From: an uncultured Chloroflexia bacterium
GTDB taxonomy: Bacteria > Chloroflexota > Dehalococcoidia > DSTF01 > JALHUB01
DNA: 64,000 bases
Direction: 5' to 3'
NCBI GenBank assembly: GCA_963726245.1
Contig: CAVSBT010000017.1
Span: 128,001 to 192,000 of the forward strand
In this document: positions 1,157 through 62,247 of the stretch, piece by piece
Numbering within the stretch: position 1 is the first letter of the stretch
Layout: each line of letters begins with the position of its first letter
Translations under genes and position numbers: made by a program
Notes under the pieces: generated by a model
What the model saw: the letters and a program-made list of their open reading frames with translations, nothing else
Databases searched by the model: none
What the model was told of the DNA's origin: nothing

Positions 1157-2499
1157 CCATTATCCAATCCGTACTCCCCTTCATAGCCATCATCGTTGTG
1201 CTCGTTGTCGTGCACGAGCTGGGGCACTTCGTGACCGCCAAGCTGAGCGGCGTGCGGGTGGAGGAGTTCGGCTTGGGCTACCCGCCGCGATTGTGGGCCA
1301 AGAAGCTCGGCGAAACAGAGTACTCCATCAATGCCCTGCCGCTGGGCGGCTTCGTGCGCATGGTGGGCGAGGAAGACCCGTCCGACTCCCGGAGCCTGGC
1401 GAGCAAGCCACGGCCGCTGAGGCTGGTCGTCTTAAGCGCGGGCTCCTTCATGAACTTCATCTTCGCCATCGCCCTCTTCACGACGGGCTTGATGATCCCG
1501 CGCGAGATCCCCGCCGGCAGGGCCGTTATCCAAGAAGTGATGCCGGGCTCCCCGGCGCAGCAGGCCGGACTCCAGAGCGGCGACGTCATCTGGAAGATCG
1601 ACAACCGTGAGGTCCACAACGTCCCCGAGACAGGGAATGCCATCCGCCTCCACCTCGGCGAGACCATTACGATGCAGGTCAAGCGCCAGGGGGAGTTCGT
1701 GGACGTGCCCGTGAAGGCGCGCTGGGTAGCTCCCGACATAGTCCACACAGTTCAGGCGGGAGAGGACGTCCCGACCGTGGCGAAGCAGTTGGGCTTGAGC
1801 GCCGACATCGTGAGGGAGGCAGCCGGCATCAAGACGACGCTCGATGCGGGAAAGCAACTCACGATCGGCGAGGGCCCCGATGCCGTAATCTACACGCCGG
1901 AAGAGGGCGACACCGTCGCCTCGGTGGCGCAACGGCTGGGTGTGAGCCAGGCGGCGGTGCGAACTGCTGCGGACCTGCCCGACCCGGACAAGCTCGAGGT
2001 GGGGAAGGAGCTACACTTCCCGCAGGGGCCCACCGGCATCGTGATTGCGCCCCAGTACACGTACACAGAGACTCAGTCGTACTCCTTCTTCAAGGCTGTT
2101 CCTCTGGGCGTGAGAAACACCGTCGACTCCCTGACCCTGGCCCGGAACCAAGTCATCATGTGGATCAAGGGAGGCGGCAGCCCCGAGGTTTCGGGGCCTA
2201 TCGGCATCGCCCAGGCGACGGGCGAAGTGGTGCAGGAGGCGGGCTGGAAGGTCTTGACGGACTTCGCCGCCCTCCTCAGCGTCAACCTGGCTGTTATCAA
2301 CATCCTGCCTCTGCCCATGCTGGACGGCGGCCGCATCGTCTTCGTCCTGCTCGAGGTGCTGCGCGGCGGCCGGCGCATTGCCCCTCGGAAGGAGGCGTTG
2401 GTGCACCTCGTGGGCCTCGTGGCCCTCCTCACCCTGGTCGTAGTCGTCAGCTACTTCGATATCGTCCGCATAATCCAGGGAGGCAGCCTCTTTCGATGA
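1153..2499 (+). CDS. rseP: RseP/RIP M50 intramembrane zinc metalloprotease with PDZ domain and an inserted pair of LysM-like repeats
   Basis: HELGH, LPLGGFV, NILPLPMLDGG motifs; PDZ (SPAQQAGLQSGDVI); insert HTVQAGEDVPTVAKQLGL and YTPEEGDTVASVAQRLGVS...LEVGKELHFP; lies between dxr and ispG. Confidence 0.93.
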   Translation: MTIIQSVLPFIAIIVVLVVVHELGHFVTAKLSGVRVEEFGLGYPPRLWAKKLGETEYSINALPLGGFVRMVGEEDPSDSRSLASKPRPLRLVVLSAGSFMNFIFAIALFTTGLMIPREIPAGRAVIQEVMPGSPAQQAGLQSGDVIWKIDNREVHNVPETGNAIRLHLGETITMQVKRQGEFVDVPVKARWVAPDIVHTVQAGEDVPTVAKQLGLSADIVREAAGIKTTLDAGKQLTIGEGPDAVIYTPEEGDTVASVAQRLGVSQAAVRTAADLPDPDKLEVGKELHFPQGPTGIVIAPQYTYTETQSYSFFKAVPLGVRNTVDSLTLARNQVIMWIKGGGSPEVSGPIGIAQATGEVVQEAGWKVLTDFAALLSVNLAVINILPLPMLDGGRIVFVLLEVLRGGRRIAPRKEALVHLVGLVALLTLVVVVSYFDIVRIIQGGSLFR

Positions 2500-3637
2500 T
2501 CCAGCGGCGGAAATCGAAGCCCCTCCAGATCGGGGACGTCACAGTCGGGGGCGAGGCGCCCGTCGTCGTCCAGTCGATGGCCAGCACCGACACGGCCGAC
2601 GCGACCGCCACCCTGCGGCAGGTCCGCGAGCTGGCCGAGCTGGGATGTGAGCTGGTGCGGGTGGCCGTGCCCCACAAGGCGGCCGCGGCCGCTCTGCCCG
2701 AGATCGTGCGCGGCAGCCCCGTTCCCATCGTCGCCGACATCCACTTCGATCACCGGCTGGCGCTCGCCGCCCTCGAGGCCGGGGTGCACGGCCTGCGCCT
2801 CAATCCCGGCAACATCCGCGACCCGGAGAAGGTGCGAACCGTCGTCCGGGAAGCCCGCGGGCGCCGGGTGCCCATTCGTGTGGGGGTGAACGCGGGCAGC
2901 CTGCCGCCCTTGCCGTCTCTGGCCGAGGGCGAGGATGCCGCCTCCCATGCACGCAGCGGATGGTGGAGGCCGCCCTCTGGGAGATCGGCATCCTGGAGGA
3001 GATGGACTTCGACCTCATCAAGGTCTCCCTGAAGGCGTTCGACGTGCCGACCATGGTGGCGGCCTATCGCGCCATCGCCGGCCGCATCCCCTATCCGCTG
3101 CACCTGGGCGTCACCGAGGCCGGGATGCCCGGCGCCGGCTCCGTCCGCAGCGCCGTCGGCATCGGCATCCTGCTGGCCGAGGGCATCGGCGACACGATCC
3201 GCGTCTCCCTGGCCGCTGACCCGAAGGAGGAGATGCCCGTCTGCTGGGACATCCTGAGAGCCTTGAACCTGCGCCAGCGCGGCCCGACCATCGTCGCCTG
3301 CCCGACCTGCGGGCGCATCGAGATCGACCTCATCCCCCTGGCTACCAAGGTGCAGGAGCACTTCCGGCGACTGGGGAAACCCGTTACCGTCGCCGTCATG
3401 GGCTGCGTCGTGAACGGTCCCGGCGAGGCCAGGATGGCGGACCTGGGGATCGCCGGCGGCAAAGGCCGGGGTGTCATCTTCCGCAAGGGGCAGGTGGTGC
3501 GCACCGTGGATGAGAAGGACTTCCTGTCCGCCCTCATCGAGGAGGGGGACAAGGTCATCGCCGAGATGAACGGCGCGCCGCCGGCTCCTGGAAGCGAGAC
3601 CCTGGTCCCCATTCAGGGGATATCGAGAGAGCAGTAG
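2496..3637 (+). CDS. ispG: 4-hydroxy-3-methylbut-2-en-1-yl diphosphate synthase (one apparent indel near 2950)
   Basis: VVVQSM, PIVADIHFD, RLNPGNI, RVGVNAGSL, then PLHLGVTEAG, GIGDTIRVSL, ACPTCGR, MGCVVNGPGE in the next frame; ATG overlaps rseP stop. Confidence 0.96.
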
Positions 3638-3949: not shown

Positions 3950-4129
3950 CGCCTGCCGACCGAGGAGTCCGGCCTGGCGGTGCCGCTGCTCTGCTGGCGC
4001 CTGTCAGACCGCATGCAAGATCGGCCGCCTTCGTTGAACAACCGACGCGCAGCATCCAGGAAGTATTGACAGAAAGAGTACAATCGTGTCAGGCGGTGTG
4101 CTGGGACGAAAACGAAGGAGGCGGGGATA

Positions 4130-4435
4130 ATGCTGTTTGTGACCCTCTACAAAGCAAGAGCAGGGCTTACACGCGAGCAGCAGCAGGAGATCTACACGCG
4201 GCGACTTGAGTGGAACCACGACGCGACCACCAAGGTGATAGGCGAGTACTTCCTTGTCGGCACCAGCCCTGAAGACCCGACCGGCGTGCTCATCTACGAG
4301 TCGGACAAGCCGGTCGTGGGGTATAGGGACCACGCTGTTTGGGGGGACCTGCTCGACATCCGGACCCACTTGGCTGTCCCGGCGGAGGAAGGTCTGAAGG
4401 TCATCCGGCAGATGGTTCAGGCGGCTGCCCGGTAG
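4130..4435 (+). CDS. hypothetical protein, loosely DUF3303/muconolactone-isomerase-like small alpha/beta protein
   Basis: AAGGAGG RBS, ATG; MLFVTLY...RRLEW...KVIGEY...GVLIYE pattern. Family assignment from memory of the pattern only. Confidence 0.6.
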   Translation: MLFVTLYKARAGLTREQQQEIYTRRLEWNHDATTKVIGEYFLVGTSPEDPTGVLIYESDKPVVGYRDHAVWGDLLDIRTHLAVPAEEGLKVIRQMVQAAAR

Positions 4436-23438: not shown

Positions 23439-23671
23439 AGGGCCGCCTCTTCCATCTCTTGCAGGAGGCGGAACACGGACTGCGCCTCCTCGGCATCGAT
23501 GACGCTGATGGCGAAGCCGGCGTGGACTATCACGTACTCGCCCACCTGGGCCTCCGGCACCAGGTTCAGGTTCGCCTCGCGGACCACGCCGCCGAAGCGC
23601 ACCCGGGCCTGGCGCAGGCCCTGGGCGTCCTCTTCAATCGACAGGATTTCGCCGGGGATACCAAGGCACAT
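23435..23671 (-). CDS. hypC: hydrogenase maturation chaperone HypC
   Basis: MCLGIPG...[13 protein letters not shown]. Confidence 0.97.
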
Positions 23672-23672
23672 C

Positions 23673-25937
<2,265 letters not shown>

Positions 25938-26313: not shown

Positions 26314-26439
26314 GGCGGTGCTCCAGCAGCAGTCCTCCCACCCGGCGACGAGGGCAGGCAGCTACACCTCAAGCTGGGGCAAGAGCCCTAACGCAGTAGT
26401 ATAAGCGGTTCTTGGGCAATAAGCGCCCAGAGCCTCGGG

Positions 26440-28155
26440 CTATCCGCCGCCGGGCGCAGGAGTGGTGCGGGCGCGGACCTCGGCAGCGGCGCCGCTCCAG
26501 GGGGCAGAGGGTGGCCTCTTTGTCCCGCCGGCCCTTGAGCTCGGCGGAGGCCTTCTCCAGGGTGCGCGGGCTGACGGTGATGCGCAGGGGCATGCCCAGG
26601 AGGTCGGCGTCGTTGAACTTGACGCCGGGCGACTCCTCGCGGTCGTCGTAGAGCACGTCGACGCCGGCGGCCTGGAGGTCGGCGTAGAGGCGGTCGGCGG
26701 CCTCGGCGACGCCGGGGCGGTCGGTGTTCAGGGACACCAGGTGGGCGTCGAAGGGGGCCAGCGAGGCGGGCCAGATGATGCCCTTCTCGTCGTGGTTGGC
26801 CTCGACGACGGCGGCCAGCAGGCGCTCCAGCCCGATGCCGTAGCAGCCCATGACGGCGGGGCGGGCTACGCCCTGGCTGTCCAGGAAGGTGGCGCCGAGC
26901 TTCTCGCTGTAGACGGTGCCCAGCTTGAAGACGTGGCCCATCTCGATGCCCCGGTCGCGGCGCAGCTTCGAGCCGCAGGAGGGGCAGGGGTCGCCGTCGC
27001 GGGCCAGGGCGATGTCCGTCACCAGGTCGGCCGACCAGTCGCGGCCGTAGTTGACGTTGCGCAGGTGGGCGTCCGGCTTGTTGGCGCCGGCCACCAGGTT
27101 GGGCGACCCCGGCGCCGAGTCGTCGGCCACGATGCGCACGTTCTTGAGGCCCATCGGCGACGCGTAGCCGGCCACCAGGCCCGCCGCCTCCAGCTCGCGG
27201 TCGTCCATGAGGCGCAGCTCGTCGACGCCCAGGGCGTCGCGCAGCTTGGTCTCGTTGACGTCCAGGTCGCCGCGGATGGCCACGAAGACCGGCTGGCCGC
27301 CGGCGGAGTAGAAGACGGCCTTGCAGCGTCTTCCAGGGCGGGATGCTCAGGAAGTTGGCCAGGTCTTCGATGGTCTTGATGCCCGGCGTGGAGACTTCCT
27401 CGACCGGCAGGGGCTCTTCGGGCTCGGGCTGGCGCTTGCGGATCTCCGCCTTCTCCGTGTTGGCGGCGTAGCCGCAGCTCTCGCAGAGCACCACCTCGTC
27501 CTCGCCGACGTCGCAGAGGTACATGAACTCCTGGTTGTCGCGGCCGCCGATGGCCCCCGAGTCGGCCTGGACGGCGACGGTCGGCACGCCGCAGCGGTCG
27601 AAGATGTTCTTGTAGGCCTGGAGCATCTTCTGGTAGCTCACGTCCAGGCCCTCCCAGTCGACGTCGAAGCTGTAGAGGTCCTTCATCGTGAACTCGCGCA
27701 GGCGGATGAGGCCGCCGCGGGGGCGCGGCTCGTCGCGGAACTTGGTCTGGATCTGGTAGATCATGACGGGCAGGTCGCGGTAGCTCTGGACGTGGCGCTT
27801 GAAGAGCTCCACGGTGATCTCCTCGTGGGTGGGGCCGAGCGCCAGGTAGCGGTCGCGGCGGTCCTTGAGGACGAACAGGTTGTCGCCGAAGGCCTCGTCG
27901 CCTGCCGGAGGCCTCCCAGATCTCGATGGGCTGGAGGGCGGGCATCATGAGCTCCTGGCCGCCGGCGGCGTCCATCTCCTCGCGGATGATCTGCTCGATC
28001 TTGCGCAGGACGCGCCAGCCCAGCGGCAGGTAGCTGTAGATGCCGGCCGCCAACTGCTGGACGAGGCCGGCCCGCAGGAGGAGGTGGTGGTTGGCGGTGT
28101 CGGCCTCCGCCGGGGCCTGGCGCAGCGTCTTGCCGAAGAGGCTTGAGAGGCGCAT
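26440..28155 (-). CDS. proS: proline--tRNA ligase with editing insertion (three apparent indels)
   Basis: [76 protein letters not shown]. Confidence 0.96.
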
Positions 28156-33868: not shown

Positions 33869-35099
33869 TCACACCAGCAGGCTGATGGGGTTCTCCAGGA
33901 AGTTGCGAAGCTCGGCCAGGAAGCGGGCGCCCAGGGCGCCGTCGGTCACCCGGTGATCGGCGGAGAGCGCCACCTTCATCTGCTCCCTCACCACAATCTC
34001 CCCGTCGCGCACGGCGGGCACCTTCCGCACGACGCCCACGCCCAGGATGGCCGTCTGCGGCGGCGGGATGATGGCGATAAGGGTCTCCACTCCGTACATG
34101 CCCAGGTTGCTGACGGTGAACGTGGCGCCGCTGTACTCCTCGGCCTTGAGGACGCCCGAGCGCGCGCGCTCCGCCAGGTCCCGGCTGGCGCGGGCGATGT
34201 CGGCCAGGCTCTTCCGGCCGCAGTCGAGGATGGCGGGCGCGATCAGGCCTTCGTCCAGTGCAATAGCGACGCCGATGTTCAGGGCCTCCTGTGGCTGGAC
34301 CTGGCCGTCGACGAACCAGGAGTTGAAGATCGGGTGGCGTTGCAGAGCCTTGGCCACGGCCTTCACGATCACGTCGTTTACGCTGATGTGGACCTCGCCC
34401 TCGGCGGCGTCGTTGAGCTGCCGGCGCAGGCGCTCGGCCTCCGTCATGTCGATCTCCATGGTCAGGTAGTAGTGGGGGGCCTCGCGCTTGCTCTGTGTCA
34501 TGCGCCGCGCGATGGCCTGGCGCATGCGGCTCATGGCCGGCGGCTGCAGCCGGCGCTGCGAGGGGAGCAGCGGCCGGGGGAGCAGCGGCCGGGGGAGCAG
34601 CCTCTGGCGCCTTCGCCGCCGCCTCGATGTCGCCGCGCAGGATGCGGCCGTCGGGGCCGGTCCCCCGCACGCGCGACAGGTCGACTCCCAGCTCCTCGGC
34701 CAGACGCCGCGCCGCCGGCGAGGCGTGGACGCGGCCGGCCTCGGGTGGCGGCGCCTCGGTGGGTGGACGCTTGGGCGCCGCCGGAGGTGGTGCCGCGGCT
34801 GCGGGGGCTGCCGCGCCCTCGCCCGCCTGCCCGGCGGGCAAGTACCGGGAGATGTCGTCCTCGGGGGCGGCGATGACGGCGATGACCTGGCCCACGGGCA
34901 CGGTCGTCCCTTCGGCCAGCAGGATGCGGCGGAGCACGCCCGACTCGTACGCCTCGATCTCCACGTTCGCCTTGTCGGTCTCGATCTCAGCGATGATCTC
35001 GCCCCGCTCGACTGCGTCGCCCTCCTTCTTGAGCCAGCGCAGGATCGTGCCCTCCTGCATGTCGGCGCCCATCTGAGGCATCACCACTTCGCTGATCAT
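33869..35099 (-). CDS. pdhC: pyruvate dehydrogenase E2 dihydrolipoamide acetyltransferase (indel near 34540)
   Basis: Lipoyl EIETDKAN, E3-binding ASPAARRLAEELGVDL...GTGPDGRI, catalytic TFTVSNLG and LSADHRVTDG. Confidence 0.93.
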
Positions 35100-36084
35100 G
35101 GCGCCCTCCTACGATCATCCCCTTCACGGCCTGCGACGATCTGCTCTTCTGAGGGCAGGGCGGCCGTCTCCAGGCGCTTGTTGTAGGGCATGGGCACGTC
35201 GGCGCCGCAGACGCGGGCCACCGGCGCGTCCAGGTAGTCGAAGGCGCGCTCCTGGATGAGGCTGGAGATCTCGCCCGCGAAGCCGCCCGTGCGCCAGTCG
35301 TCCTCCACCACCACCGCGCGGCTCGTCTTCTTGACCGACTCGACGACGGTGTCGATGTCCAGCGGCCGCAGCGTGCGCAGGTCGATGACCTCCGCCTCCA
35401 GCCCCTTCTCGGCCAGCATGGCGGCGGCCCGCAGCGACTGGTGGACGCTCCCCGAGTAGCCGACGATGGTCACGTCGCGCCCCTGGCGGCGGACGTTGGC
35501 CTGCCCGAAGGGGACGTGGTAGTCGTCCTCCGGCACCTCGCCTTTCATGGCGTAGAGGGCGGTGTGCTCGATGAAGATGACGGGGTTTTCGTCGCGGAGG
35601 GCGGTCTTCAGGAGACCCTTGGCGTCGTAGGGGGTAGCGGGCACGACCACCTTGAGGCCGGGGACGTGGGCGTACCAGCCCTCCAGGCTGTGCGAGTGCT
35701 GGGCGCTGAGCTGGCTGCCGCCGCCGCTGGCCATGCGAACCACCAGCGGCACGTTTATCTGGCCGTCCCGACATGTAGTGGAGCTTGGAGGCGTTGTTGA
35801 TGATCTGGTCGATGGCGAGGAAGCTGAAGTTGATGGTCATCAGCTCCACGATGGGCCTCAGCCCGCCCATGGCCGCGCCGATGCCGGCGCCGACGACCAC
35901 CGACTCCGAGATGGGCGTATCGCGCACGCGCTCGGGCCCGAACTCCTCCAGCAGGCCCGCGGGTGACGCCGTAGGAGCCGCCGTAGGCGCCGATGTCCTC
36001 GCCCATGAGGATGACGCGCTCGTCGCTCAGCAGCGCCTCGCGGATGGTCTGGCGCAACGCTTCTCGAAAGGTGATCTCAGCCAT
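35096..36084 (-). CDS. pdhB: pyruvate dehydrogenase E1 beta subunit (indels)
   Basis: [53 protein letters not shown]. Confidence 0.93.
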
Positions 36085-37105: not shown

Positions 37106-37165
37106 GTAGGGGCGTCCCTCCGTGGTCGCCCAGCCGTAGGGGCAGGGACGGGGCCCTGCCCCTAC
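37106..37165. repeat. GTAG-type REP doublet
   Basis: GTAGGGGCGTCCCTCCGTGGTCGCCC...GGGCAGGGACGGGGCCCTGCCCCTAC; the same two units recur at 46489-46553 and 60940-60998. Confidence 0.8.
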
Positions 37166-38570
37166 GGCTGGCGCTCCTCCCTCCAGAAGTGGATGGCCTG
37201 CCCGTAGGCGCCCAGGGCCGCCTCTTTGAAGGCCTCCGAGAGCGTAGGGTGGGCGTGGACCGTCAGGCCTACCTCGCGGGCCGTGGCCTCCATGAGGGTG
37301 CCGAGGGAGGCCTCGGCCAGGAGCTCCGTCACCTCCGGCCCGACCATGTGGCAGCCCAGCAGGTCGCCCCCGTCGGCATCGACCACCAGCTTGATCACGC
37401 CCTCGGTCTGGCCCAGGGCGGTCGCCTTGGCGTTAGCGCGGAAGGGGAAGCGGCCTATCTTGACCGAGCGGCCCTGCTCGCGGGCCTGGGCCTCCGTCAG
37501 GCCGATGCTGGCCACCTGGGGCTGGCAGAAGGTGGCGCGAGGCATCTTGACGTAATCCAGAGCCGGCGGGTCCTGCCCGGCGATGCCCTCGACGGCGGCG
37601 ACGCCTTGCGCCGACGCCACGTGAGCCAGCATCAGCTTGCCCGTGACGTCGCCGATGGCGTACACGCCGGGGACGCTGGTCTGCATCCGCTCGTCGATCT
37701 GGACGAAGCCCTTTTCCAGCGCGATGCCCAGCTTGTCGAGGCCCAGGGCCTCTGTGCTGGCGGCCATGCCGACGGCCATCAGCACGCGGCTCGGCGCGCA
37801 GCTCCTCCTCGCGGCCGCCGGCGCTGACCTGGACGGCGGCGCCGGCCCTTGCCCAACTGCACGCCCTGCACGCGGGCCGAGGTCAGGCTGCGGATGCCCT
37901 GCTGCTCGAAGGCGCGCGCCAGCCGCTGGCTGATCTCCTCGTCCTCGGTGGGCAGCAGGCGGTCCAGCATCTCGACAATGGTGACCTGGCTGCCGTAGGC
38001 GCGGTAGAGGTAGGCGAACTCCGCTCCCACGGGCCCGCCGCCGACGATGACGATGGACTCCGGCGCCTCTTTCAGTTCCAGGGCCTCGCGGCTGGTGATG
38101 ACAACCTTGCCGTCGATGTCGACGCCCGGGATGCTGCGGGCGTGGGCGCCGGTGGCGACGATGACGTGGTCGGCCTCGACCGACGCCGCCGGCGAGGCGA
38201 TCACCTCGACCTCGTGGGGGCTCTGGAGGCGGCCGGCGCCGCTGATCACGTCCACCTTGTTGCGCTTCAGGAGGAATTCCACCCCCTTCACTGTGCGCTC
38301 CACCACCTGCCGGCTGCGCTCGACGGCCTTGCTCAGGTCGAAGCGCAGGTCGCCGGTGGTGACGCCGAACTCGTCGGCGCGCTGGAAGAGGTGGATGACT
38401 TCGGCGTTCCAGAGGAGGGCCTTGCTGGGGACGCAGCCCCAGTTCAGGCAGAGCCCGCCGACGCGGTCCTTCTCGATGAGGGCCGTCTTCAGGCCCAGCT
38501 GGGCGGCGCGGATGGCGGCCACGTAGCCGCCGGGCCCCGCCCCGATGATAGCCAGGTCGTACTTGGCCAT
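37162..38570 (-). CDS. lpdA: dihydrolipoyl dehydrogenase (indels near 37800)
   Basis: [46 protein letters not shown]. Confidence 0.95.
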
Positions 38571-38591
38571 GGTGACCGTCCTCGAACTCCT

Positions 38592-39545
38592 CTAGCCGCC
38601 GCCCTCGAGGGTCGGCTGCACGGGTATCGTCTCTACCAGCGGCGGAGGCTCGCGGCCCGCCTCGCGCAGCATCAGGCCGACCTGCTGGTGGGCGTGGTAG
38701 GAGCTCCGCACCAGCGGGCCGGCCTCCACGTGCTGGAAGCCCAGCCGGCGCCCTTCGTCCGCGATCTCGGCGAACTCCTCCGGCGGCACGAAGCGCTCCA
38801 CCGGCAGGTGCTTCTGAGACGGTCGCAGGTACTGCCCGATGGTGACGACGTCGCAGCCCGCGCTGCGCAGGTCTGCCAGGACCTCCCTCACCTCTTCCCG
38901 CGTCTCGCCCAGGCCAAGCATCATGCCGGACTTGCTGAGCATCGAGGCGTCCATCTCCTTGACCGCGGCCAGCAGAGCTAGGGAGCGCTCGTAGCGGGCC
39001 TTGGGACGCACGCGCCGGTAGAGGCGCGGCACGGTCTCGACGTTGTGGTTGAGCACGAAGGGCCTCGCCTCCACCACCGCGGCCAGCGCCTCGCGGTCGC
39101 CCAGGAAGTCGGGGATCAGCACCTCCACGCGGCAGTCGGGCCGGCGGGCGCGGATGGCGCGGATGCAGGCGGCGAACATGCCCGCGCCGCCATCCGGCAG
39201 GTCGTCCCGGTTCACGGAGGTGATGACCACGTAGTCCAGCCCCAGCACGTCGACGGTGCGGGCGAGGCGGTGCGGCTCCAGGAGGTCGAGGCCCTGGGGC
39301 CGCCCGGAGGTGACGGCGCAGAAGCCGCAGCTTCGGGTGCAGGTGTCGCCCAGGATCATGAAGGTGGCGGTGCCGTGGTTGAAGCACTCGCCGATGTTGG
39401 GGCAGCGGGCCTCCTCGCAGACCGTGTGCAGTTCGCGGCTGCGCAGCAGGCCCTTGATCTCGCCGTAGCGCTCGCCGGCGGGGAAGCGCACCTTGAGCCA
39501 GGGCGGAAGCCGGCGGCCGTTGTTGGCGGGGGACATCGTCTCCAT
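38592..39545 (-). CDS. lipA: lipoyl synthase
   Basis: TVCEEARCPNIGEC, CTRSCGFC, NHNVETV, GQYLRP, GPLVRSSYHA. Confidence 0.97.
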   Translation of the reverse strand: METMSPANNGRRLPPWLKVRFPAGERYGEIKGLLRSRELHTVCEEARCPNIGECFNHGTATFMILGDTCTRSCGFCAVTSGRPQGLDLLEPHRLARTVDVLGLDYVVITSVNRDDLPDGGAGMFAACIRAIRARRPDCRVEVLIPDFLGDREALAAVVEARPFVLNHNVETVPRLYRRVRPKARYERSLALLAAVKEMDASMLSKSGMMLGLGETREEVREVLADLRSAGCDVVTIGQYLRPSQKHLPVERFVPPEEFAEIADEGRRLGFQHVEAGPLVRSSYHAHQQVGLMLREAGREPPPLVETIPVQPTLEGGG

Positions 39546-40255
39546 CAGGCTCCTCCAGACGCGACGGTGGCCTCATCGCGGGCGGGCAGTCCGTCCTTCG
39601 CCTCGACCATCTCCAGGCCGAAGACGCGCCCCAGGCTGTCGATGACCAGCTCCTCCACGTCCGGCAGGGGGACCGGGCGACCCACGAGGCGCTCGACGGA
39701 GGTGACGCCGGCGTCGACAAGGCCGCAGGGCACGATGTGCGCGAAGTAGGAGAGGTCGGGGCTCACGTTCAGGGCGAAGCCGTGGCTGGTGACGCCCCGC
39801 GAGACGCGCACGCCGATGGCCGCTACCTTGGCGGCGCCCACCCAGACGCCGGGCCGGCCCTCGACGCGGCCGGCGGCGATGCCCAAAGCGGCCAGCGTGT
39901 CGATAAGGGCCTCCTCTAGCCTGCGCACGTACCAGCTCGGGCCTTCGCGCCAGTCGTTGAGCCGGAAGATGGGGTAGCCCACGATCTGCCCCGGCCCATG
40001 GAAGGTGACGTCGCCGCCGCGGTCAACGCGATGTACCTGCGCCCCAAGCCGGGTCAGCGCCTCCTCGGAGGCGAGAAGGTGTTCGGACTTGCCGCGCACG
40101 CCCAGGGTGTAGGTGGGAGGATGCTGGAGAAGAATGAGCACGTGCGAAGAGCGGCCGTCGCCCACGGCGTCGACCGCCTGCCGCTGCATCTCCCAGCCCT
40201 CCGCGTAATCGGTGAGGCCGCGGCGAAACACCAGGCACTGCCTGAAAGGGGACAT
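39545..40255 (-). CDS. lipB: octanoyltransferase
   Basis: HPPTYTLG, DRGGDVTFHGPGQIVGYPI, KVAAIG, TSHGFALNV, IVPCGL. Confidence 0.96.
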   Translation of the reverse strand: MSPFRQCLVFRRGLTDYAEGWEMQRQAVDAVGDGRSSHVLILLQHPPTYTLGVRGKSEHLLASEEALTRLGAQVHRVDRGGDVTFHGPGQIVGYPIFRLNDWREGPSWYVRRLEEALIDTLAALGIAAGRVEGRPGVWVGAAKVAAIGVRVSRGVTSHGFALNVSPDLSYFAHIVPCGLVDAGVTSVERLVGRPVPLPDVEELVIDSLGRVFGLEMVEAKDGLPARDEATVASGGA

Positions 40256-52486: not shown

Positions 52487-53536
52487 GTGATCAGCGTCTT
52501 CTGCGGCCCCGACAGCTTCACGCTCCATGAGGCCCTCGCCGAGCTCAAGGCGGAGCTGAACGGCGACGGCATGCTCTCCACCAACACCGCCGCCTTCGAG
52601 GGCAGCCAGGTGCGCCCCGACGAGCTGCTGGCCGTCTGCAACACGGTGCCCTTCATGGGCGCCCACCGCCTGGTGCTGGTCGAGGGCCTTCTGGGTCGTT
52701 TCGAGGCGCCCCGCGGCCGGCGTCAGGCCGGCGCCGGGCCGGCGGGAGACCCCGGCCGGCGGGCCGAACTGGGCCCCTGGCGAGACCTGCCCGCCGCCCT
52801 CGAAGGCCTGCCTCCTTCCGCCGCCCTTGTCTTCGTAGACGGGGATATCTCCGAGAGCAACCCTCTGCTGAAGCTGCTGTCGCCTCTAGCCCAGGTTCGG
52901 CGCTTCCCCCGCCTCGGCCAGCGCGACCTTCCGGGATGGATCCAGGCTCGCGCCCGGCAAGAGGGCGTGGACATCTCGCCCGCGGCGGTGCGCCTGCTCG
53001 CCGACCTGGTGGGGAACGACCTGTGGACGCTCTGGCAAGAGCTGAAGAAGCTGGCCTTATACGCCTCTGGCGGGCGGGTGGAGGACGAGGACGTGCGCGC
53101 CCTTACGGTGGCAGCCCGCGAGGCCAGCGTCTTCACCCTTGTCGATGCCGTGGTCGAGGGCCGTCCCGACCAGGCGCTCCGCCTCCTCGAGCAACTCCTC
53201 GATCAAGGGGCGGCGGCCCCGTACGTGCTGGCCATCATCACGCGCCAGTACCGCAACCTTCTGCTGGCCAAGGAGATGATGGGGCAGCGCCGTCCGAGGG
53301 CGGAGATCGGCGAACGGCTGGGCATCAAGTCAGGCTTTGCCCTGGGAAAGGTGCTGGAGCAGGCGGGGCGCTGCCCGCCGGCCAGGCTGGAAGCCGCCTA
53401 CCGCCGGCTGCTGGAGGCCGACGCCTCGATCAAGTCCGGCGTCTACCGCGAGGAGCTGGCTTTGGAGGTGCTGGTGGAAGACCTGGCGCGCATAGCGGCG
53501 CCGCCTTCGCCAGAACGCGGGAGGAGGCCCGCATAA
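52487..53536 (+). CDS. holA: DNA polymerase III delta subunit
   Basis: TVPFMGAHRLVLV, LVGNDLWTLWQELKKLALY, VFTLVDAV, LLEADASIKSG. Confidence 0.92.
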   Translation: MISVFCGPDSFTLHEALAELKAELNGDGMLSTNTAAFEGSQVRPDELLAVCNTVPFMGAHRLVLVEGLLGRFEAPRGRRQAGAGPAGDPGRRAELGPWRDLPAALEGLPPSAALVFVDGDISESNPLLKLLSPLAQVRRFPRLGQRDLPGWIQARARQEGVDISPAAVRLLADLVGNDLWTLWQELKKLALYASGGRVEDEDVRALTVAAREASVFTLVDAVVEGRPDQALRLLEQLLDQGAAAPYVLAIITRQYRNLLLAKEMMGQRRPRAEIGERLGIKSGFALGKVLEQAGRCPPARLEAAYRRLLEADASIKSGVYREELALEVLVEDLARIAAPPSPERGRRPA

Positions 53537-53558: not shown

Positions 53559-54188
53559 TTAGGAGATGGGGCGGAAGACGGAGAGCACGCGCCCCTGGAT
53601 CTCCACGTTGGCGGCGTCGGTGTAGATGGGAGGCAGGGTCTCGTTCGCGGGCTGGAGACGTACCTGGTTGCCCTCCCGGTAGAACTTCTTGAGGGTGACC
53701 TCCTCCTCCTTCTTGAGCCAGACGGCTACCATGTCCCCGTCCTTGGCAGTGTTGGCCTGCTCCATCACCACGATGTCGCCATCGTTGATGAGGGCGTCGA
53801 TCATCGATGTGCCCTTGACGCGGAGAGCGAAGACGTTGTCCTGCCCGCCGGCCATGTCCGGGGTGACCGACACCGTCTCGTCGTAGGCGACGCTGCCCTC
53901 CGGCACGGGGATAGGCTGGCCGGCGGCGATGCGCCCAACGAGCGGCACGGCGACACTGCGTACGCGGCGGCCGCTGCCGTCCAGCAGCTCGATGGCCCGC
54001 GAGACCTCGCGGTCGCGCCGGATGTGGCCCATCCTCTCGAGGGCCTTGAGGTTGTAGTCGACCACAGACGTGGAGCTGATGCCGCAGCCGATCTGGATGT
54101 CGCGGATGCTGGGCGGATACTCCTTATCATCGATGAAGCGACGGATGAAGGCCAGGATCTTCTGCTGTCGGGGCGATAGAGGCTTCAT
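53559..54188 (-). CDS. lexA: SOS repressor LexA
   Basis: YPPSIRDI, SSTSVVDYNL, GRIAAGQP (Ala-Gly site), LRVKGTSMIDA, VTLKKF, LQPAN. Confidence 0.97.
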   Translation of the reverse strand: MKPLSPRQQKILAFIRRFIDDKEYPPSIRDIQIGCGISSTSVVDYNLKALERMGHIRRDREVSRAIELLDGSGRRVRSVAVPLVGRIAAGQPIPVPEGSVAYDETVSVTPDMAGGQDNVFALRVKGTSMIDALINDGDIVVMEQANTAKDGDMVAVWLKKEEEVTLKKFYREGNQVRLQPANETLPPIYTDAANVEIQGRVLSVFRPIS

Positions 54189-54241: not shown

Positions 54242-54291
54242 GAACCTGTGTTCTGTCGAACAACAGTACCAGCGAAGAGGGCCTTTGTCAA
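54242..54291 (-). promoter_or_regulatory. lexA promoter with two SOS boxes
   Basis: GAACCTGTGTTC (54242-53) and GAACAACAGTAC (54258-69); minus-strand TTGACA-N17-TACTGT overlapping the second box. Confidence 0.85.
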
Positions 54292-58169: not shown

Positions 58170-58879
58170 TCAGGCCCCGTGCCGGCTTGGGGGCTCTCGC
58201 CCTCGCCTTCCGCCGGCATCTCTTCGGCAGCGGGCGCTTCTTCGTCCGCCGCCGCCGCCTCGACGGTCATCGCCTGCGGCTCCTCGGCCGGAGCCGGCGG
58301 CGGAGAGGGCGAGGTCGTGGCCGGCTTCGCCGCCAGGCGCAGCTCCGAGTAGCGGAGGTTGAGGCGAGGCGGTCTCGCCATCTCGACGCTGAGCCGGTTC
58401 GTGAGTATGTTTTCCACCGCCCTGCATGCCTCCTCCGAGGTGAGGGCCAGGTTGGTATCCGGGTCCACGTGCAGCTCCAGGTCTACCTCCACACCCTTGC
58501 CGCGGGCCGCCACCATGGCCTTGACCTGGGTGACGTGCGGCACAGCGGACACCTCCTGCTGGAGGCGCTGGCCGATGGCGTCTGTCGAGAGGAGGGCGTC
58601 GCCGGCCCGCACGTCGCGCACGGGCACCCGCTCCGCCCGGGGCGGCGTCAGCTCGGCGATGACCACGACCAGGGCGAGGAGGGCCACCACGACGCCACCC
58701 AGGGTGAGGATGATGCGCGATCCGTTGTCGTCCTGGTGATCGTGCAGGAACTGGACGAAGTCCGAGAGGCGCTGCACGCTCTCGGAGGCGGCGGCCCAGG
58801 TGAAGAGGATGACCAGCGCCACGGCGAACATGAGCAGCAGGGCACCCAACAAGATGATGAGGCGGTTGGCGACGTTCAT
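58163..58879 (-). CDS. AmaP/Asp23-like membrane-anchored protein
   Basis: MNVANRLIILLG, two TMs, then an Asp23-like domain (LSTDAIGQRL...VDLELHV) and an acidic tail; GAGGAGG RBS. Confidence 0.72.
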   Translation of the reverse strand: MNVANRLIILLGALLLMFAVALVILFTWAAASESVQRLSDFVQFLHDHQDDNGSRIILTLGGVVVALLALVVVIAELTPPRAERVPVRDVRAGDALLSTDAIGQRLQQEVSAVPHVTQVKAMVAARGKGVEVDLELHVDPDTNLALTSEEACRAVENILTNRLSVEMARPPRLNLRYSELRLAAKPATTSPSPPPAPAEEPQAMTVEAAAADEEAPAAEEMPAEGEGESPQAGTGPDA

Positions 58880-60316
58880 TGTTTCCTCCTCAAACTCTCG
58901 CCCCTGCCGGCCAAGCAGGCCAGATGCGCCGATGACGCCCAGACGAGCTCTCCCCAGACGCCTCCCTCGAATTCGCCCCGCCCTCGCGTCCGGCCGGCGG
59001 GCTGCGTCGAGCCGGTGCCGTCTCCGAGTCGGGCGGGCAGGATGCGGTTCCAGAGGTTGGCGTCGCTGCGGGTGAATACGCGGATGTAATTGTCGGTCAG
59101 GCCTTCCCAAAGCAGGCCGCCCCTGGTGCGCCGGGTCCTCTCCCAGAGCACGGGCATGACCCGCCCCAGGAAGCGCGCCTCGAAGGCGGCCCGCAGGTCG
59201 CGGCCCAGGGCCAGCAGGCGCCGCGTGCGCTCCCGCTTCACGGGCTCCGGCACCTGGTCGTCCGCCAAAGGCGGACGGGCGGCGACGGTGCCCGGCCGGC
59301 GCGAGTAGGGGAAGACGTGCAGCGCGGCGAAGGCAGCCTCGCCGCAGAGGGCGTAGCGTCTCCTCGAAGTCGGCCTCGGACTCACCCGGGAAGCCGACCA
59401 TGACGTCGGTCGTCACGGCCGCATCGGGGACGTGCCTGCGGATCAGGGCCAGGGCCTGGCGAAAGTCAGCGGCGGTGTAGCGGCGGCGCATGCGGGCGAG
59501 GACGTTGTCGCTGCCGCTCTGGAGAACCAGGTGGAAGTGGCGGCAGAGACGCGGGTCCTCCCACAGCGAGAGCAGCTCTGATGTGACGTCCTGCGGCTGT
59601 AGCGACGAGAGGCGTAGCCGCGGCGCCGCCGTCTCCCCCAGCAGGGCCCGCAGCAGCGCCGAGGGGCCGGAGGCGGCCGCGCCGTTGCTCCTCTCTCGCC
59701 CATGGGCGGCCCTGTAGGCACCCAACTGAGTGCCGGTGAGCACCACCTCCTGCACACCCTCTTTCTCGCGGGCGCGCACGGCGCTGACCACCTCATCCAG
59801 GGGCACGCTGCGCTCGCGGCCGCGGGTCCGGGGAACCACGCAGAAGGCACAGACGTCGTTGCAGCCCTCCTGCACCTTGAGGAAGGCCCTGGTGCGCAGC
59901 AAACCCCAGGAGTCGGAACAGGACGCTGACTCGGCAACCCCGCCGGTCTGACGAACGCCCGGACCGGCGAGCCGGGCGGCCAGCGAAGGCTTCTCGTCGT
60001 TCTTCAGGATGAGGTCGGCGCCGATGGCGGCGGCCAGGCCCGGCCCGGCAGTCTCGACGTAGCAGCCGGTGACGATCACCGGCGCCACGGGCGAAAGGCG
60101 GCGGGCCAGACGGGCCAGGTGGCGGGCCTTGCGGTCGGCGACGTGGGTGACGGAGCAGGTGTTGATGACGAAGGCATCGGCGGCGGCGGGCCGGTCCACC
60201 ACCTGGCAGCCCGCGGCCAGCAGGTCGCGGGCGATGGCCTCGGATTCGGCCTGGTTGAGCTTGCAGCCCAGGGTGAGGAGGCAGACGCGGCGGATGGTTG
60301 GGCTCTCGTTGGTCAT
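58876..60316 (-). CDS. mtaB: tRNA t6A methylthiotransferase (one apparent indel near 59355)
   Basis: TLGCKLNQAES, INTCSVT, RTRAFLKVQEGCNDVCAFC, LHVFPYSRRPGT, GLTDNYIRV. Confidence 0.93.
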
Positions 60317-60476
60317 AAGAATGACGAGCCGGCAGGGGCTCGCCCACATGATAGCGGAACGAGGGGGGCTGTCAATCGAGGGGCTAGGAGCGGCCGGGGC
60401 TGCCCGTCAACGTCGCCGTCTTCGGACAGGGGAAAGGTTCCCGGCCGCCCCACGGTAAGGGGGGGAACCCGGAGGA

Positions 60477-60686
60477 TCAGTTGGTGTGGACCCGAATGGG
60501 GTGCTTGTGGCGTTGCACCATGGCCGAGAGCGCCAGCTCCGAGAGTCGGGCCTCCCGCAGGAGCGCCTCGGCGCGGGACCGCATGTCGTCTATGGCGCGT
60601 CGCTGGCGGCGCCGCCACAGATGGAGCGCCACTTCCATGGCCAGCGACCCGCCGGCCGCCAGGGCTCCGCTCAGCAAGAGCGTCAT
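60477..60686 (-). CDS. 69-aa protein with hydrophobic N-terminus and basic helical tail
   Basis: MTLLLSGALAAGGSLAMEVALHLWRRRQRRAIDDMRSRAEALLREARL...; follows the Zn-ribbon ORF by 24 nt; a GGTTCCC/GGGAACC hairpin lies downstream. Confidence 0.6.
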   Translation of the reverse strand: MTLLLSGALAAGGSLAMEVALHLWRRRQRRAIDDMRSRAEALLREARLSELALSAMVQRHKHPIRVHTN

Positions 60687-60710
60687 GTCCCTATCGACTC
60701 CGGCGTCCGG

Positions 60711-60830
60711 CTAGCAGCGGGTGAAGCCGCAGATAGGGCAGCAGATGCAGCCCTCGCCGTGGACCAGCGGGCCGCCGCAGTCCGGACAGCGGACGCCCGT
60801 GAGATGACCCTTCGTTGTGCCCTTGCGCAT
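60711..60830 (-). CDS. 39-aa Cys-rich zinc-ribbon microprotein (not in the supplied ORF track)
   Basis: AGGAGG RBS; MRKGTTKGHLTGVRCPDCGGPLVHGEGCICCPICGFTRC*. Confidence 0.8.
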   Translation of the reverse strand: MRKGTTKGHLTGVRCPDCGGPLVHGEGCICCPICGFTRC

Positions 60831-60846
60831 CGCTGTGCCTCCTAAG

Positions 60847-60935
60847 GAACATGTGTTCTTCTTCCTATACGTCAGTAATTATCAGAACAGCCGTTCTTTG
60901 TCAAGGGGTTTGACGAAAAAAGAACAAATATTTTC
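60847..60935 (-). promoter_or_regulatory. cluster of SOS boxes with sigma70 -35
   Basis: GAACATGTGTTC (60847-58), GAACAGCCGTTC (60885-96), degenerate GAACAAATATTT (60922-33); minus-strand TTGACA at 60899-904. Confidence 0.85.
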
Positions 60936-60939
60936 GTGC

Positions 60940-60998
60940 GTAGGGGCGACCCCCCGTGGTCGCCCGGAAAAGGGGCAGGGACGGGGCCCTGCCCCTAC
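60940..60998. repeat. GTAG-type REP inverted doublet
   Basis: GTAGGGGCGACCCCCCGTGGTCGCCC...GGGCAGGGACGGGGCCCTGCCCCTAC. Confidence 0.8.
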
Positions 60999-61096
60999 GC
61001 GCGCGGTGTCCAATTTCCGCAAGGTTGGATGAAACTACGGTGGGGGCGATATCATGAAGCGTCCGCTCAGCATGTTTAGCCGCTTGAGGAGGCCTG

Positions 61097-62247
61097 GTGC
61101 GGATTCTCATCGCTCCGCAGGAGTTCAAGGGCAGCCTCTCCGCTGTTGAGGCTGCCCAAGCCATGGCGGAAGGCCTGGGTCGCGCCCTTCCCGGCGTCGA
61201 GCTTGACCTGGCGCCCATGGCTGACGGGGGCCCGGGCACCGTCGAGGCGCTGGTGTCGGCCGCCGGGGGGCGTCGTCTCACGTCCACGGTCGCCGGCCCT
61301 CTGGGGCGGCCCGTGGAGGCCGCCTGGGGACTGGTGGAGGAAGGCCCCACCGCCGTCATCGAGATGGCGGCGGCCTCGGGCCTCGTCCTTCTTCGCCCCC
61401 AGGAGCGCGACGCCCGCCGCGCCGGCACCTATGGCACCGGCCGGCTCATAGCCGCCGCCCTGGACGCGGGCTGCCGGCGCCTCATCATCGGGCTGGGCGG
61501 CAGCGCCACCAACGACGGTGGCGCGGGGATGGCTCAGGCCCTGGGCGTCCGCCTCAACGACGCGGAGGGCCGCGACCTGCCCGCCGGCGGCGCCGCCCTG
61601 GCCCGCCTGGCCCGCATCGACGTGAGCGGGCTGGACAAGCGCCTGCGCCACTGCCGCGTCCTGGGCGCCACCGACGTCACGAACCCCCTCTGCGGGCCCC
61701 ACGGCGCCTCCGCCGTCTACGGGCCTCAGAAGGGCGCCTCGCCCTCCGATGTCGAGGAGCTGGACGCTGCCCTGGCCCACTACGCCGCCGTCATCGAGCG
61801 CGACCTGGGCAAGCGGGTGTCTGAGGTGCCCGGCGCGGGAGCGGCCGGCGGCGCCGGGGCCGGGCTCATCGCCTTCCTGGACGCCGAGCTGCGTCCCGGC
61901 GCCGAGCTCGTGGCGGAGGCGGTGGGCCTTGAGAGACGCATCGCGGCCGCCGACCTGGTGGTCACCGGCGAAGGACGGCTGGACGCCCAGACGGCCTACG
62001 GCAAGACGGTGGCCACGGTGGCCCGCCTGGCGCGGCGGCAGGGCCGGCGTGTCGTCGCCCTGGCGGGGCGCGTCGACGACGCGCAGGAGGCCTGCTCGGC
62101 GCTGGGGCTGGAGGCGGCCCTCAGCATCGTGCCGCCGGCCACGCGCTGCCCGAGGCAGAGGCCATGTCGAGGGCGTCCGAGCTGCTGTCGGCCGCCGCCG
62201 AAAGCCTGCCACGATTGCTGAAGCTGGGACGTGGACATCCGGGCTGA
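61097..62247 (+). CDS. glxK: glycerate kinase (GlxK family; indel near 3' end)
   Basis: IAPQEFKGSL, PMADGGPGT, GLGGSATNDGG, DVTNPLCG, YGPQKGA, TGEGRLDAQT. Confidence 0.93.

Follow-up and report, generated by a model that had tools for sequence, protein, structure and literature searches.

Two very small open reading frames (ORFs) lying behind LexA-type boxes raise two questions: whether they form a genuine SOS operon, and what their products would do in the cell. Both are on the minus strand of a 64,000-nucleotide (nt) stretch of DNA (assembly GCA_963726245.1, contig CAVSBT010000017.1, positions 128,001 to 192,000), hereafter called the window. The first ORF, orfA, encodes a 39-amino-acid (aa) zinc-ribbon microprotein, and the second, orfB, encodes a 69-aa protein with a hydrophobic N-terminus. 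Judging from the sequence, we lean, with no great assurance, towards a LexA-repressed (SOS) micro-operon in a high-GC, Dehalococcoidia-class Chloroflexota bacterium. The joint claim that the locus is under LexA control and that both small genes are real is one in which we place high confidence.

LexA operators and a conserved zinc-ribbon gene

We identified the following features at the locus and at lexA.

60899..60904, minus strand: -35 element TTGACA of the orfA promoter, read directly
60885..60896, no strand assigned: LexA operator 1, GAACGGCTGTTC, a perfect palindromic GAAC-N4-GTTC within the -35/-10 spacer
60876..60883, minus strand: -10 region TGATAATT(A), ambiguous, either GATAAT at 15-nt spacing or a TG-extended TAATTA at 17 nt
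60847..60858, no strand assigned: LexA operator 2, GAACACATGTTC, a perfect match between the likely transcription start and the ribosome-binding site
60838..60843, minus strand: Shine-Dalgarno sequence AGGAGG, 7 nt 5' of the orfA ATG, read directly
60711..60830, minus strand: orfA, from the ORF list, stop included; 39-aa zinc-ribbon microprotein with Cys 15, 18, 28, 31, 34 and 39
60477..60686, minus strand: orfB, stop included; 69 aa, opening with a hydrophobic helix at the N-terminus, followed by RRRQRR and a long helix, and closing with the conserved QRHKHP[IV]RVHTN
53559..54188, minus strand: lexA, the presumed cognate repressor (Pfam LexA_DNA_bind, 4.1e-19; Peptidase_S24, 2.8e-29)
54242..54269, no strand assigned: lexA operators, a perfect GAACCTGTGTTC at 54242-54253 and a one-mismatch GAACAACAGTAC at 54258-54269 that overlaps the lexA -10

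An earlier, sequence-only reading of this DNA had described two perfect GAAC-N4-GTTC boxes around a TTGACA -35, the same motif in front of lexA, an AGGAGG, a 39-aa ribbon peptide, and a 69-aa ORF in which a hydrophobic N-terminus is followed by WRRRQRR. All of these are present as described, with the genes on the minus strand. Read 5' to 3' on that strand, two bases separate TTGACA from GAACGGCTGTTC, TGATAATTA links GAACGGCTGTTC to GAACACATGTTC, and a gap of 24 nt separates orfA from the orfB ATG (60686). The perfect motif occurs at three sites in the 64-kb window, against 0.41 expected, and 3 of 100 shuffled sequences reach that number; two of the sites belong to the orfA promoter and the third (54242-54253) lies upstream of lexA. 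One-mismatch boxes, with 16 found and 14.98 expected, are uninformative. A LexA box has reportedly also been studied in Dehalococcoides. The identification of the motif as the Gram-positive LexA box agrees with the form GAAC-N4-GTTC given in the available part of the published description (PMC3323433).

The perfect box of lexA lies about 55 nt upstream of the gene, just downstream of the one-mismatch box that overlaps the -10. The lexA promoter on the minus strand comprises TTGACA (54286-54291), 17 nt and TACTGT, and its operators are 6.5 kb from those of orfA. A degenerate third box had also been proposed in front of orfA at 60922-60935 (GAAAATATTTGTTC). We rejected it as an operator because its half-sites are 6 nt apart, not 4, and because it is missing in L001, the closest relative. 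Some other loci have a correctly spaced GAAAATTTGTTC about 30 nt upstream of operator 1. One result counts against the promoter as drawn here: a sigma-70 consensus scan did not call it, and its -10 is weak or ambiguous.

The relatives of the locus bear directly on LexA control. A scan of one genome per species returned 307 pattern matches, of which 200 were confirmed and the best 80 were kept as loci, numbered from L001. Together with the window these form a comparison set of 81 sources, which represent related species and not 80 independent events. The loci were compared as stretches of 8 kb, and complete or near-complete assemblies are among them (contigs CP070630.1, OY969814.1, OY969584.1, OY969567.1 and OZ241365.1). 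All 80 loci come from Chloroflexota/Dehalococcoidia metagenome-assembled genomes, except for one contig labelled Acidobacteriota and two labelled 'uncultured bacterium'. The Acidobacteriota label (L007, contig JAIVWR010000008.1) probably reflects mis-binning, because the GlxK of this contig, like its locus, falls inside a tight Dehalococcoidia clade.

Counted over all 81 sources, the stretches reaching up to 260 nt upstream of the ribbon motif total 20,832 nt and contain 68 perfect boxes and 95 with one mismatch; the remaining 538,891 nt contain 4 perfect and 151 one-mismatch boxes. One of the four perfect boxes found elsewhere is part of the ribbon promoter in L025, where the protein carries a long extension at its N-terminus. 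With that box reassigned to the ribbon promoter, perfect boxes number 69 upstream and 3 elsewhere, an enrichment of roughly 600-fold. At least one box stands upstream of the ribbon in 80 of the 81 sources, which bears out the suggested co-conservation of boxes and zinc-ribbon gene, and a perfect box is present in 50; the sole source without a box, L072, is cut 61 nt upstream of the ribbon. Over the loci, the consensus of the box is A-GAAC-[AG]NN[TC]-GTTC-T. TTGAC[AG], a 16-18-nt spacer holding a LexA box and then TAnnnn follow one another in 69/81 sources, by a lenient test in which TA sufficed for the second hexamer. The position of operator 1 is kept in L001, L002 and L034 and across the loci, and a second box lies 23-38 nt from the first in most of them. 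Spacers and flanks have diverged among the loci, whereas the half-sites of the boxes have not. GGAG-type sites are found 5' of the ribbon start in most loci compared.

As these sequences have it, the ribbon family is fixed at one chromosomal place, always behind LexA boxes. A divergent glxK lies on one flank (matches in 58 of the 81 sources), and on the other flank the next gene is directly mtaB (48/81) or an asp23-like gene (19/81), with neither within reach in 14. We considered whether the boxes might serve the divergent glxK instead and rejected this, as they lie about 40-130 nt from the ribbon start throughout. They belong to the ribbon and not to glxK because in L002, L004 and L006 glxK is 1.7-1.9 kb away while the boxes are still near the ribbon. 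None of the 80 loci has lexA within 4 kb. The motif itself, its overlap with the core promoter, an autoregulated lexA and conservation in relatives were all found, and they point to membership of a LexA regulon with a Gram-positive-type operator.

Might the two ORFs not be genes at all? In that case orfA would be a decayed 3' fragment of nrdJ, the gene for the B12-dependent ribonucleotide reductase (RNR), and orfB a chance open frame in GC-rich DNA. High-GC DNA does yield many chance ORFs, several of them overlapping here, and the window contains many split genes. We nevertheless consider this explanation extremely improbable. The decayed fragment, a possibility already raised in the sequence-only reading, was rejected: orfA has its own promoter, ribosome-binding site and start, no nrdJ remains adjoin it, and it is kept at one syntenic place in 80 loci with a low ratio of nonsynonymous to synonymous substitution rates (dN/dS; 0.16 against L001). 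For orfB, the dN/dS against L001 is lowest in its own frame among the six (0.345 overall and 0.21 over codons 25-69, based on 28 differences, compared with 0.58-2.4 in the other five). Of its 30 homologues, 29 are exactly 69 aa, and a profile search extended these to 41 clusters over which the length is constant. Public sets already contain called homologues of both ORFs, annotated as 'hypothetical protein', 'UPF0148 Zn finger' or, mistakenly, 'FlaF'. The two-gene SOS module that had been proposed therefore stands in part: both are real small genes behind a LexA-type operator and promoter, but orfA and orfB are not conserved as a pair.

The ribbon and the tail of the B12-dependent reductase

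On sequence and modelling evidence, orfA is a disordered basic tail followed by a zinc ribbon with the cysteine pattern C-x2-C-x9-C-x2-C-x2-C-x4-C. AlphaFold2 (AF2), run with the family alignment, gave a confident ribbon for residues 11-39 (predicted local distance difference test score, pLDDT, 83-90) and left the tail disordered. Ten stand-alone homologues of 36-48 aa came from a word-based search, and exhaustive HMMER searching gave 99 representatives at E <= 1e-3, most of them 36-120 aa long and ending in CPDCGGPLVHGEGC..CP.CG[FY][ST].C. The long proteins recovered by HMMER that end in the same ribbon carry an RNR barrel and/or TSCPD domains. In the ESM Atlas, orfA matched only unnamed small clusters and one viral cluster with IBR in 11% of its members.

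Kinship between orfA and the C-terminal tail of the RNR protein, NrdJ, is supported by several comparisons. The NCBIfam model NF006417 (B12-dependent RNR, 759 positions) aligns its positions 731-758 with residues 12-39 of orfA at E 9e-7; this is a match to the tail only, at 27.5 bits, and is below the whole-protein cut-off of 961 bits. The same model matches 38/38 aligned family members, with a best E of 3.3e-9. A tBLASTn search of 50,697 phage genomes with orfA gave 38 records, and 12/12 of the matches listed fall in B12-dependent RNR genes. The likeness of CPxCG..L...EGC..C..CG to the NrdJ C-terminal ribbon, which had been proposed in the sequence-only reading, is upheld by the NF006417 match and by the phage hits, and the suggested profile comparison with NrdJ C-termini aligned orfA with the last 28 positions of that model.

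In the available part of Loderer et al. 2017 (PMC5704485), all six Cys of the NrdJ tail are required for turnover, four are proposed as zinc ligands and two as a redox pair, and the native reductant of the tail is reported as unknown. The Cys positions given there for the NrdJ of S. nassauensis are 920, 923, 933, 936, 939 and 945. Set beside this terminal Cys6-Zn module (PMC5704485, same portion), orfA has matching Cys spacing and the CP[DE]CG...L...EGC..C..CG motif in common; the last Cys gap is x4 in orfA and x5 in the S. nassauensis enzyme. The RNR- and TSCPD-linked ribbon tails found here have a last gap of x4, as in orfA. By analogy, C15, C18, C31 and C34 of orfA would bind zinc, and C28 and C39 would be the non-ligand pair. 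Of 147 distinct cores, 123 have C28 together with the terminal Cys, 18 have neither and 6 have one without the other (Fisher p 1e-17, uncorrected for phylogeny), and this joint presence or loss fits a functional pair. Unlike the NrdJ module, the orfA family stands alone at 36-60 aa without an RNR barrel or TSCPD domain and has a distinct, nearly invariant GGPLVHGEGC loop, and orfA has its own LexA-controlled promoter. We regard orfA as a relative of the NrdJ module and not as NrdJ, because its 39-aa ORF stands alone and has a promoter and ribosome-binding site to itself.

How might such a protein act? LexA dimers on both operators would block RNA polymerase, and DNA damage would free the promoter through RecA-stimulated self-cleavage of LexA. 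The orfA product would then accumulate and act as a free copy of the NrdJ redox tail, engaging the NrdJ active site or the reductant of NrdJ and changing the supply of deoxynucleoside triphosphates (dNTPs) during repair. We put this role forward tentatively, by analogy with the NrdJ module, as a possible one.

Several results weigh against it. In the portion of the Loderer study that is available, a separately expressed Cys-rich domain gave no rescue of activity in trans (PMC5704485). The similarity to NrdJ spans only about 28 residues of a common small fold, and 31/38 family members also match an unrelated archaeal zinc-ribbon model, NF001645 (best E 2.7e-8). In Pfam, Auto_anti-p27 / UPF0148 reached orfA only below threshold, at 20.3 bits against a gathering cut-off of 24.1. 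A PDB sequence search with the family profile had a best E of 0.012, from rubredoxin CPxCG knuckles only, and a Foldseek comparison of the orfA model with the PDB gave 0/249 at E <= 0.001, returning generic zinc ribbons such as TFS4 and ZifS. There is no RNR gene in the 64-kb window. Finally, a clamp-binding-like motif in 27/81 relatives points to the replisome rather than to RNR.

This motif lies in the tail that precedes the ribbon, which comes in several types. The 81 sources comprise 38 short basic tails (type a, including the window), 27 with TQLRLxLF (type b), 11 with RVRIRTLV (type c), 4 with RRLRRM and 1 long extension containing QFSLF (L025). The type-b motif, T-Q-L-R-[LFM]-x-[LMI]-[FLYS], stands 5-6 residues before the first Cys and, in most loci, about 15-60 nt before locus position 4001-4015 (L016, L020, L022, L026-L028, L031-L033, L035, L038, L041, L042, L044-L047, L049, L050, L052, L063, L068, L071, L072, L074, L076 and L077). 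L051 and L064 have tails with SLTMF and SLDLF. A quick GlxK tree of 53 rows shows every tail type as a single clade and places the window with L001 and L002. To our knowledge, no known clamp partner is a 45-aa zinc ribbon. Motifs that bind the beta sliding clamp have been published as QLxLF and QLxLxL, and TQLRLxLF fits this pattern, at pattern level only, in the available text of that source (PMC4564189).

The ribbon could accordingly be a replisome-directed SOS factor, brought to the beta clamp by its N-terminal motif and blocking or remodelling clamp traffic at damaged forks. Its NrdJ likeness would then reflect shared fold ancestry only, and the window copy, having lost the motif, would depend on another factor, perhaps orfB. 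The type-b tails, together with QFSLF, SLTMF and SLDLF, are what such a factor might be expected to carry; the motif falls within the tail left disordered by AF2, and ribbons followed by small membrane ORFs are confined to sources without the motif (14/38 type-a sources and 0/43 others). This last association is weak because only two or three events underlie it. The tail of the window orfA, MRKGTTKGHLTGVR, contains neither QLxLF nor QLxLxL, however, and the motif is likewise missing in the 37 other type-a and the 11 type-c ribbons. Type b is, moreover, a single clade in the GlxK tree and so essentially one evolutionary event. We consider a replisome-directed factor unlikely.

A wider version of the NrdJ-tail reading would make the ribbon a class-wide SOS effector, a free-standing NrdJ redox tail, switched on by DNA damage, through which the damage signal would reach deoxynucleotide supply or the replisome. 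Members of the large clade with the clamp motif could act at stalled forks, either holding or regulating the reductase or blocking clamp partners; in the window lineage, which lacks the motif, a membrane-anchored partner gene, orfB, would have been added. We regard this wider version as doubtful.

The second gene, orfB

The hydrophobic N-terminal third of orfB varies conservatively, while residues 24-69, up to the QRHKHP[IV]RVHTN end, are nearly invariant. AF2 predicts one helix over residues 2-61 (pLDDT 88). By the positive-inside rule, the C-terminus is probably cytoplasmic because RRRQRR comes right after the helix. We predict that orfB is probably an N-terminally membrane-anchored helix protein whose conserved part faces the cytoplasm, and that it would act at the membrane from the cytoplasmic side. 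Neither Pfam nor NCBIfam gave anything significant for orfB, LysM included, and the ESM Atlas gave nothing at >= 0.9. A complex prediction for orfA with orfB residues 24-69 scored 0.00, which is evidence neither way. The membrane assignment has a point against it, in that a Kyte-Doolittle maximum of 1.66 over 19 residues makes a membrane span a borderline case, and Glu18 and His22 lie within the segment. So does the place of orfB in the operon, since it is intact only in the window, L001 and, distantly, L034.

By tBLASTn among the 81 sources, orfB is found only in the window, L001 and L002. A distant homologue is probable in L034, where a 69-aa ORF aligns with orfB by hhalign at 90% probability (E 1.6e-6) and by tBLASTn at E 1.8e-4. 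The L002 copy is a pseudogene, because its hydrophobic part is deleted and there are stops in frame. It follows that orfA works without orfB, which is absent from most loci and decayed in L002. On this comparison, orfB is a coding, lineage-restricted, young and dispensable addition. Directly after the ribbon gene, at the position of orfB, 10 loci of one clade have a second, unrelated hydrophobic ORF of 33 aa (MDPLTVAIQTLLVVSVTGLWAFWGPWRDWRPRS and variants; L003 at 2568-2669, L007 at 4109-4210, and L004, L006, L009, L013, L017, L018, L023 and L029).

DinQ is reportedly an SOS-regulated single-pass toxic peptide, and small SOS-induced membrane proteins that inhibit division offer a second model. 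Like the SOS division inhibitors (YneA, SosA, ChiZ and DivS; SidA/DidA), orfB is small, has one hydrophobic helix and a LexA-type promoter, and shows sequence conservation confined to its own lineage. It differs from the YneA- and SosA-type inhibitors named in the sequence-only reading: orfB has no LysM, is not beside lexA, and has a conserved part that is probably cytoplasmic. In the accessible part of a paper on the Gram-positive inhibitors, an extracellular C-terminus is usual, most have LysM, and the gene is beside lexA and divergent from it (PMC6851548). Unlike these, orfB is the second gene of its operon and lies 6.3 kb from lexA. Delaying division is still the role we would put first for orfB, as a conjecture held with little confidence; a role in lowering the membrane potential seems unlikely.

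The latter role would make orfB an SOS-induced membrane toxin of the TisB/DinQ kind, one that lowers the proton-motive force and favours dormancy and is not a division inhibitor. TisB and DinQ of E. coli share with orfB LexA control, hydrophobicity and dispensability. A small hydrophobic protein under LexA control, with a pseudogene in L002, would suit such a toxin, as would the acidic residue E18, which the hydrophobic helix keeps even in the distant homologue of L034, and the unrelated 33-aa ORF at the same position in 10 other loci. At 69 aa, however, orfB is 2-3 times longer than these peptides of 27-29 aa, and conservation is highest in a soluble helix of 45 residues whose end is rich in His. 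Neither an antisense RNA partner nor any Rfam family was found over 60300-61150. We think a toxin of this kind unlikely.

Neighbouring genes and the wider meaning of the locus

Downstream of orfB, two further features lie between the micro-operon and mtaB.

60435..60470, minus strand: hairpin after orfB, a weak candidate terminator (-23.8 kcal/mol), partly conserved in L001
60348..60375, minus strand: mtaB promoter TTGACA-16-TATCAT, a scan match of 11/12, conserved in L001, L002 and L034

The closing hairpin noted in the earlier reading does exist, but its role as a terminator is unsupported: it folds no better than shuffled sequence (z 0.29, with 121/200 shuffles folding at least as well), and a terminator scan made no call. 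In the window lineage, the micro-operon probably ends before mtaB because mtaB has its own conserved promoter. Between this promoter and the mtaB start codon (60316), a GC-rich hairpin is followed by ATTCTTATG (60323-60344); both are conserved in L001 and L002 and may be a 5'-leader element of mtaB. In many species (L045, L032, L027, L035, L041 and others), the ribbon stop lies 25-60 nt from the mtaB start. There mtaB is so close behind the ribbon that it is probably co-transcribed from the LexA-controlled promoter, which would place a tRNA methylthiotransferase under SOS control in those species.

This proximity raises the further possibility that the ribbon assists the radical-SAM methylthiotransferase MtaB in redox chemistry or metal binding, with LexA control being secondary. 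Beyond the direct succession of the two genes in more than half of the sources, often at co-transcribable distance, one record (P0047) runs on from the ribbon directly into the N-terminus of MtaB, and in another (P0071) a thioredoxin-like [2Fe-2S] ferredoxin domain is joined to the same ribbon. P0047 is a single record, which may be a fusion or an assembly artefact. The asp23-like gene takes the place of mtaB in 19 sources, the mtaB of the window clade has a promoter of its own, and the LexA operators are the most conserved feature of the locus. A helper of MtaB seems to us very unlikely.

Many housekeeping genes of the window are split over two overlapping frames, namely gcpE, hypF, proS, those for the 2-oxoacid dehydrogenase E2 and E1-beta subunits, lpdA and mtaB (spans 2160-3634, 23569-25903, 26372-27812, 33872-35099, 35099-35927, 37165-39720 and 58876-60316). 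The pattern suggests an assembly rich in indels rather than mass pseudogenisation. In L001, mtaB is a single frame, unlike in the window. Despite the indel-rich look of the window, orfA and orfB both match L001 codon for codon. The gap from the glxK start to the orfA promoter contains a compound GC-rich inverted-repeat element (60935-61003), in which an outer stem encloses two hairpins; it is not found at the same place in L001. Near lexA, holA (DNA polymerase III delta, 52487-53533) is convergent with lexA (53559-54188), their ends being 26 nt apart.

We found no publication describing the ribbon family, in a literature search with many subscription papers outside its coverage, and to that extent the module may still be called undescribed. 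The locus illustrates how small membrane proteins can be recruited to and lost from an SOS operon, with two unrelated ones at the same position in different clades and one of them present as a pseudogene. SOS regulons outside the model phyla are poorly known, and the Chloroflexota/Dehalococcoidia are abundant and mostly uncultured. A 36-60-aa ribbon gene that has LexA operators at every locus compared would rank among the most constant components of the SOS regulon in these bacteria. The kinship of the ribbon with the NrdJ tail provides a testable link from DNA damage to deoxynucleotide supply, and the clamp-motif-like sequence in a third of the family provides a second one, to the replisome. 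If the ribbon is a class-wide SOS effector, it may lead to the physiological partner of the Cys-rich domain of NrdJ.

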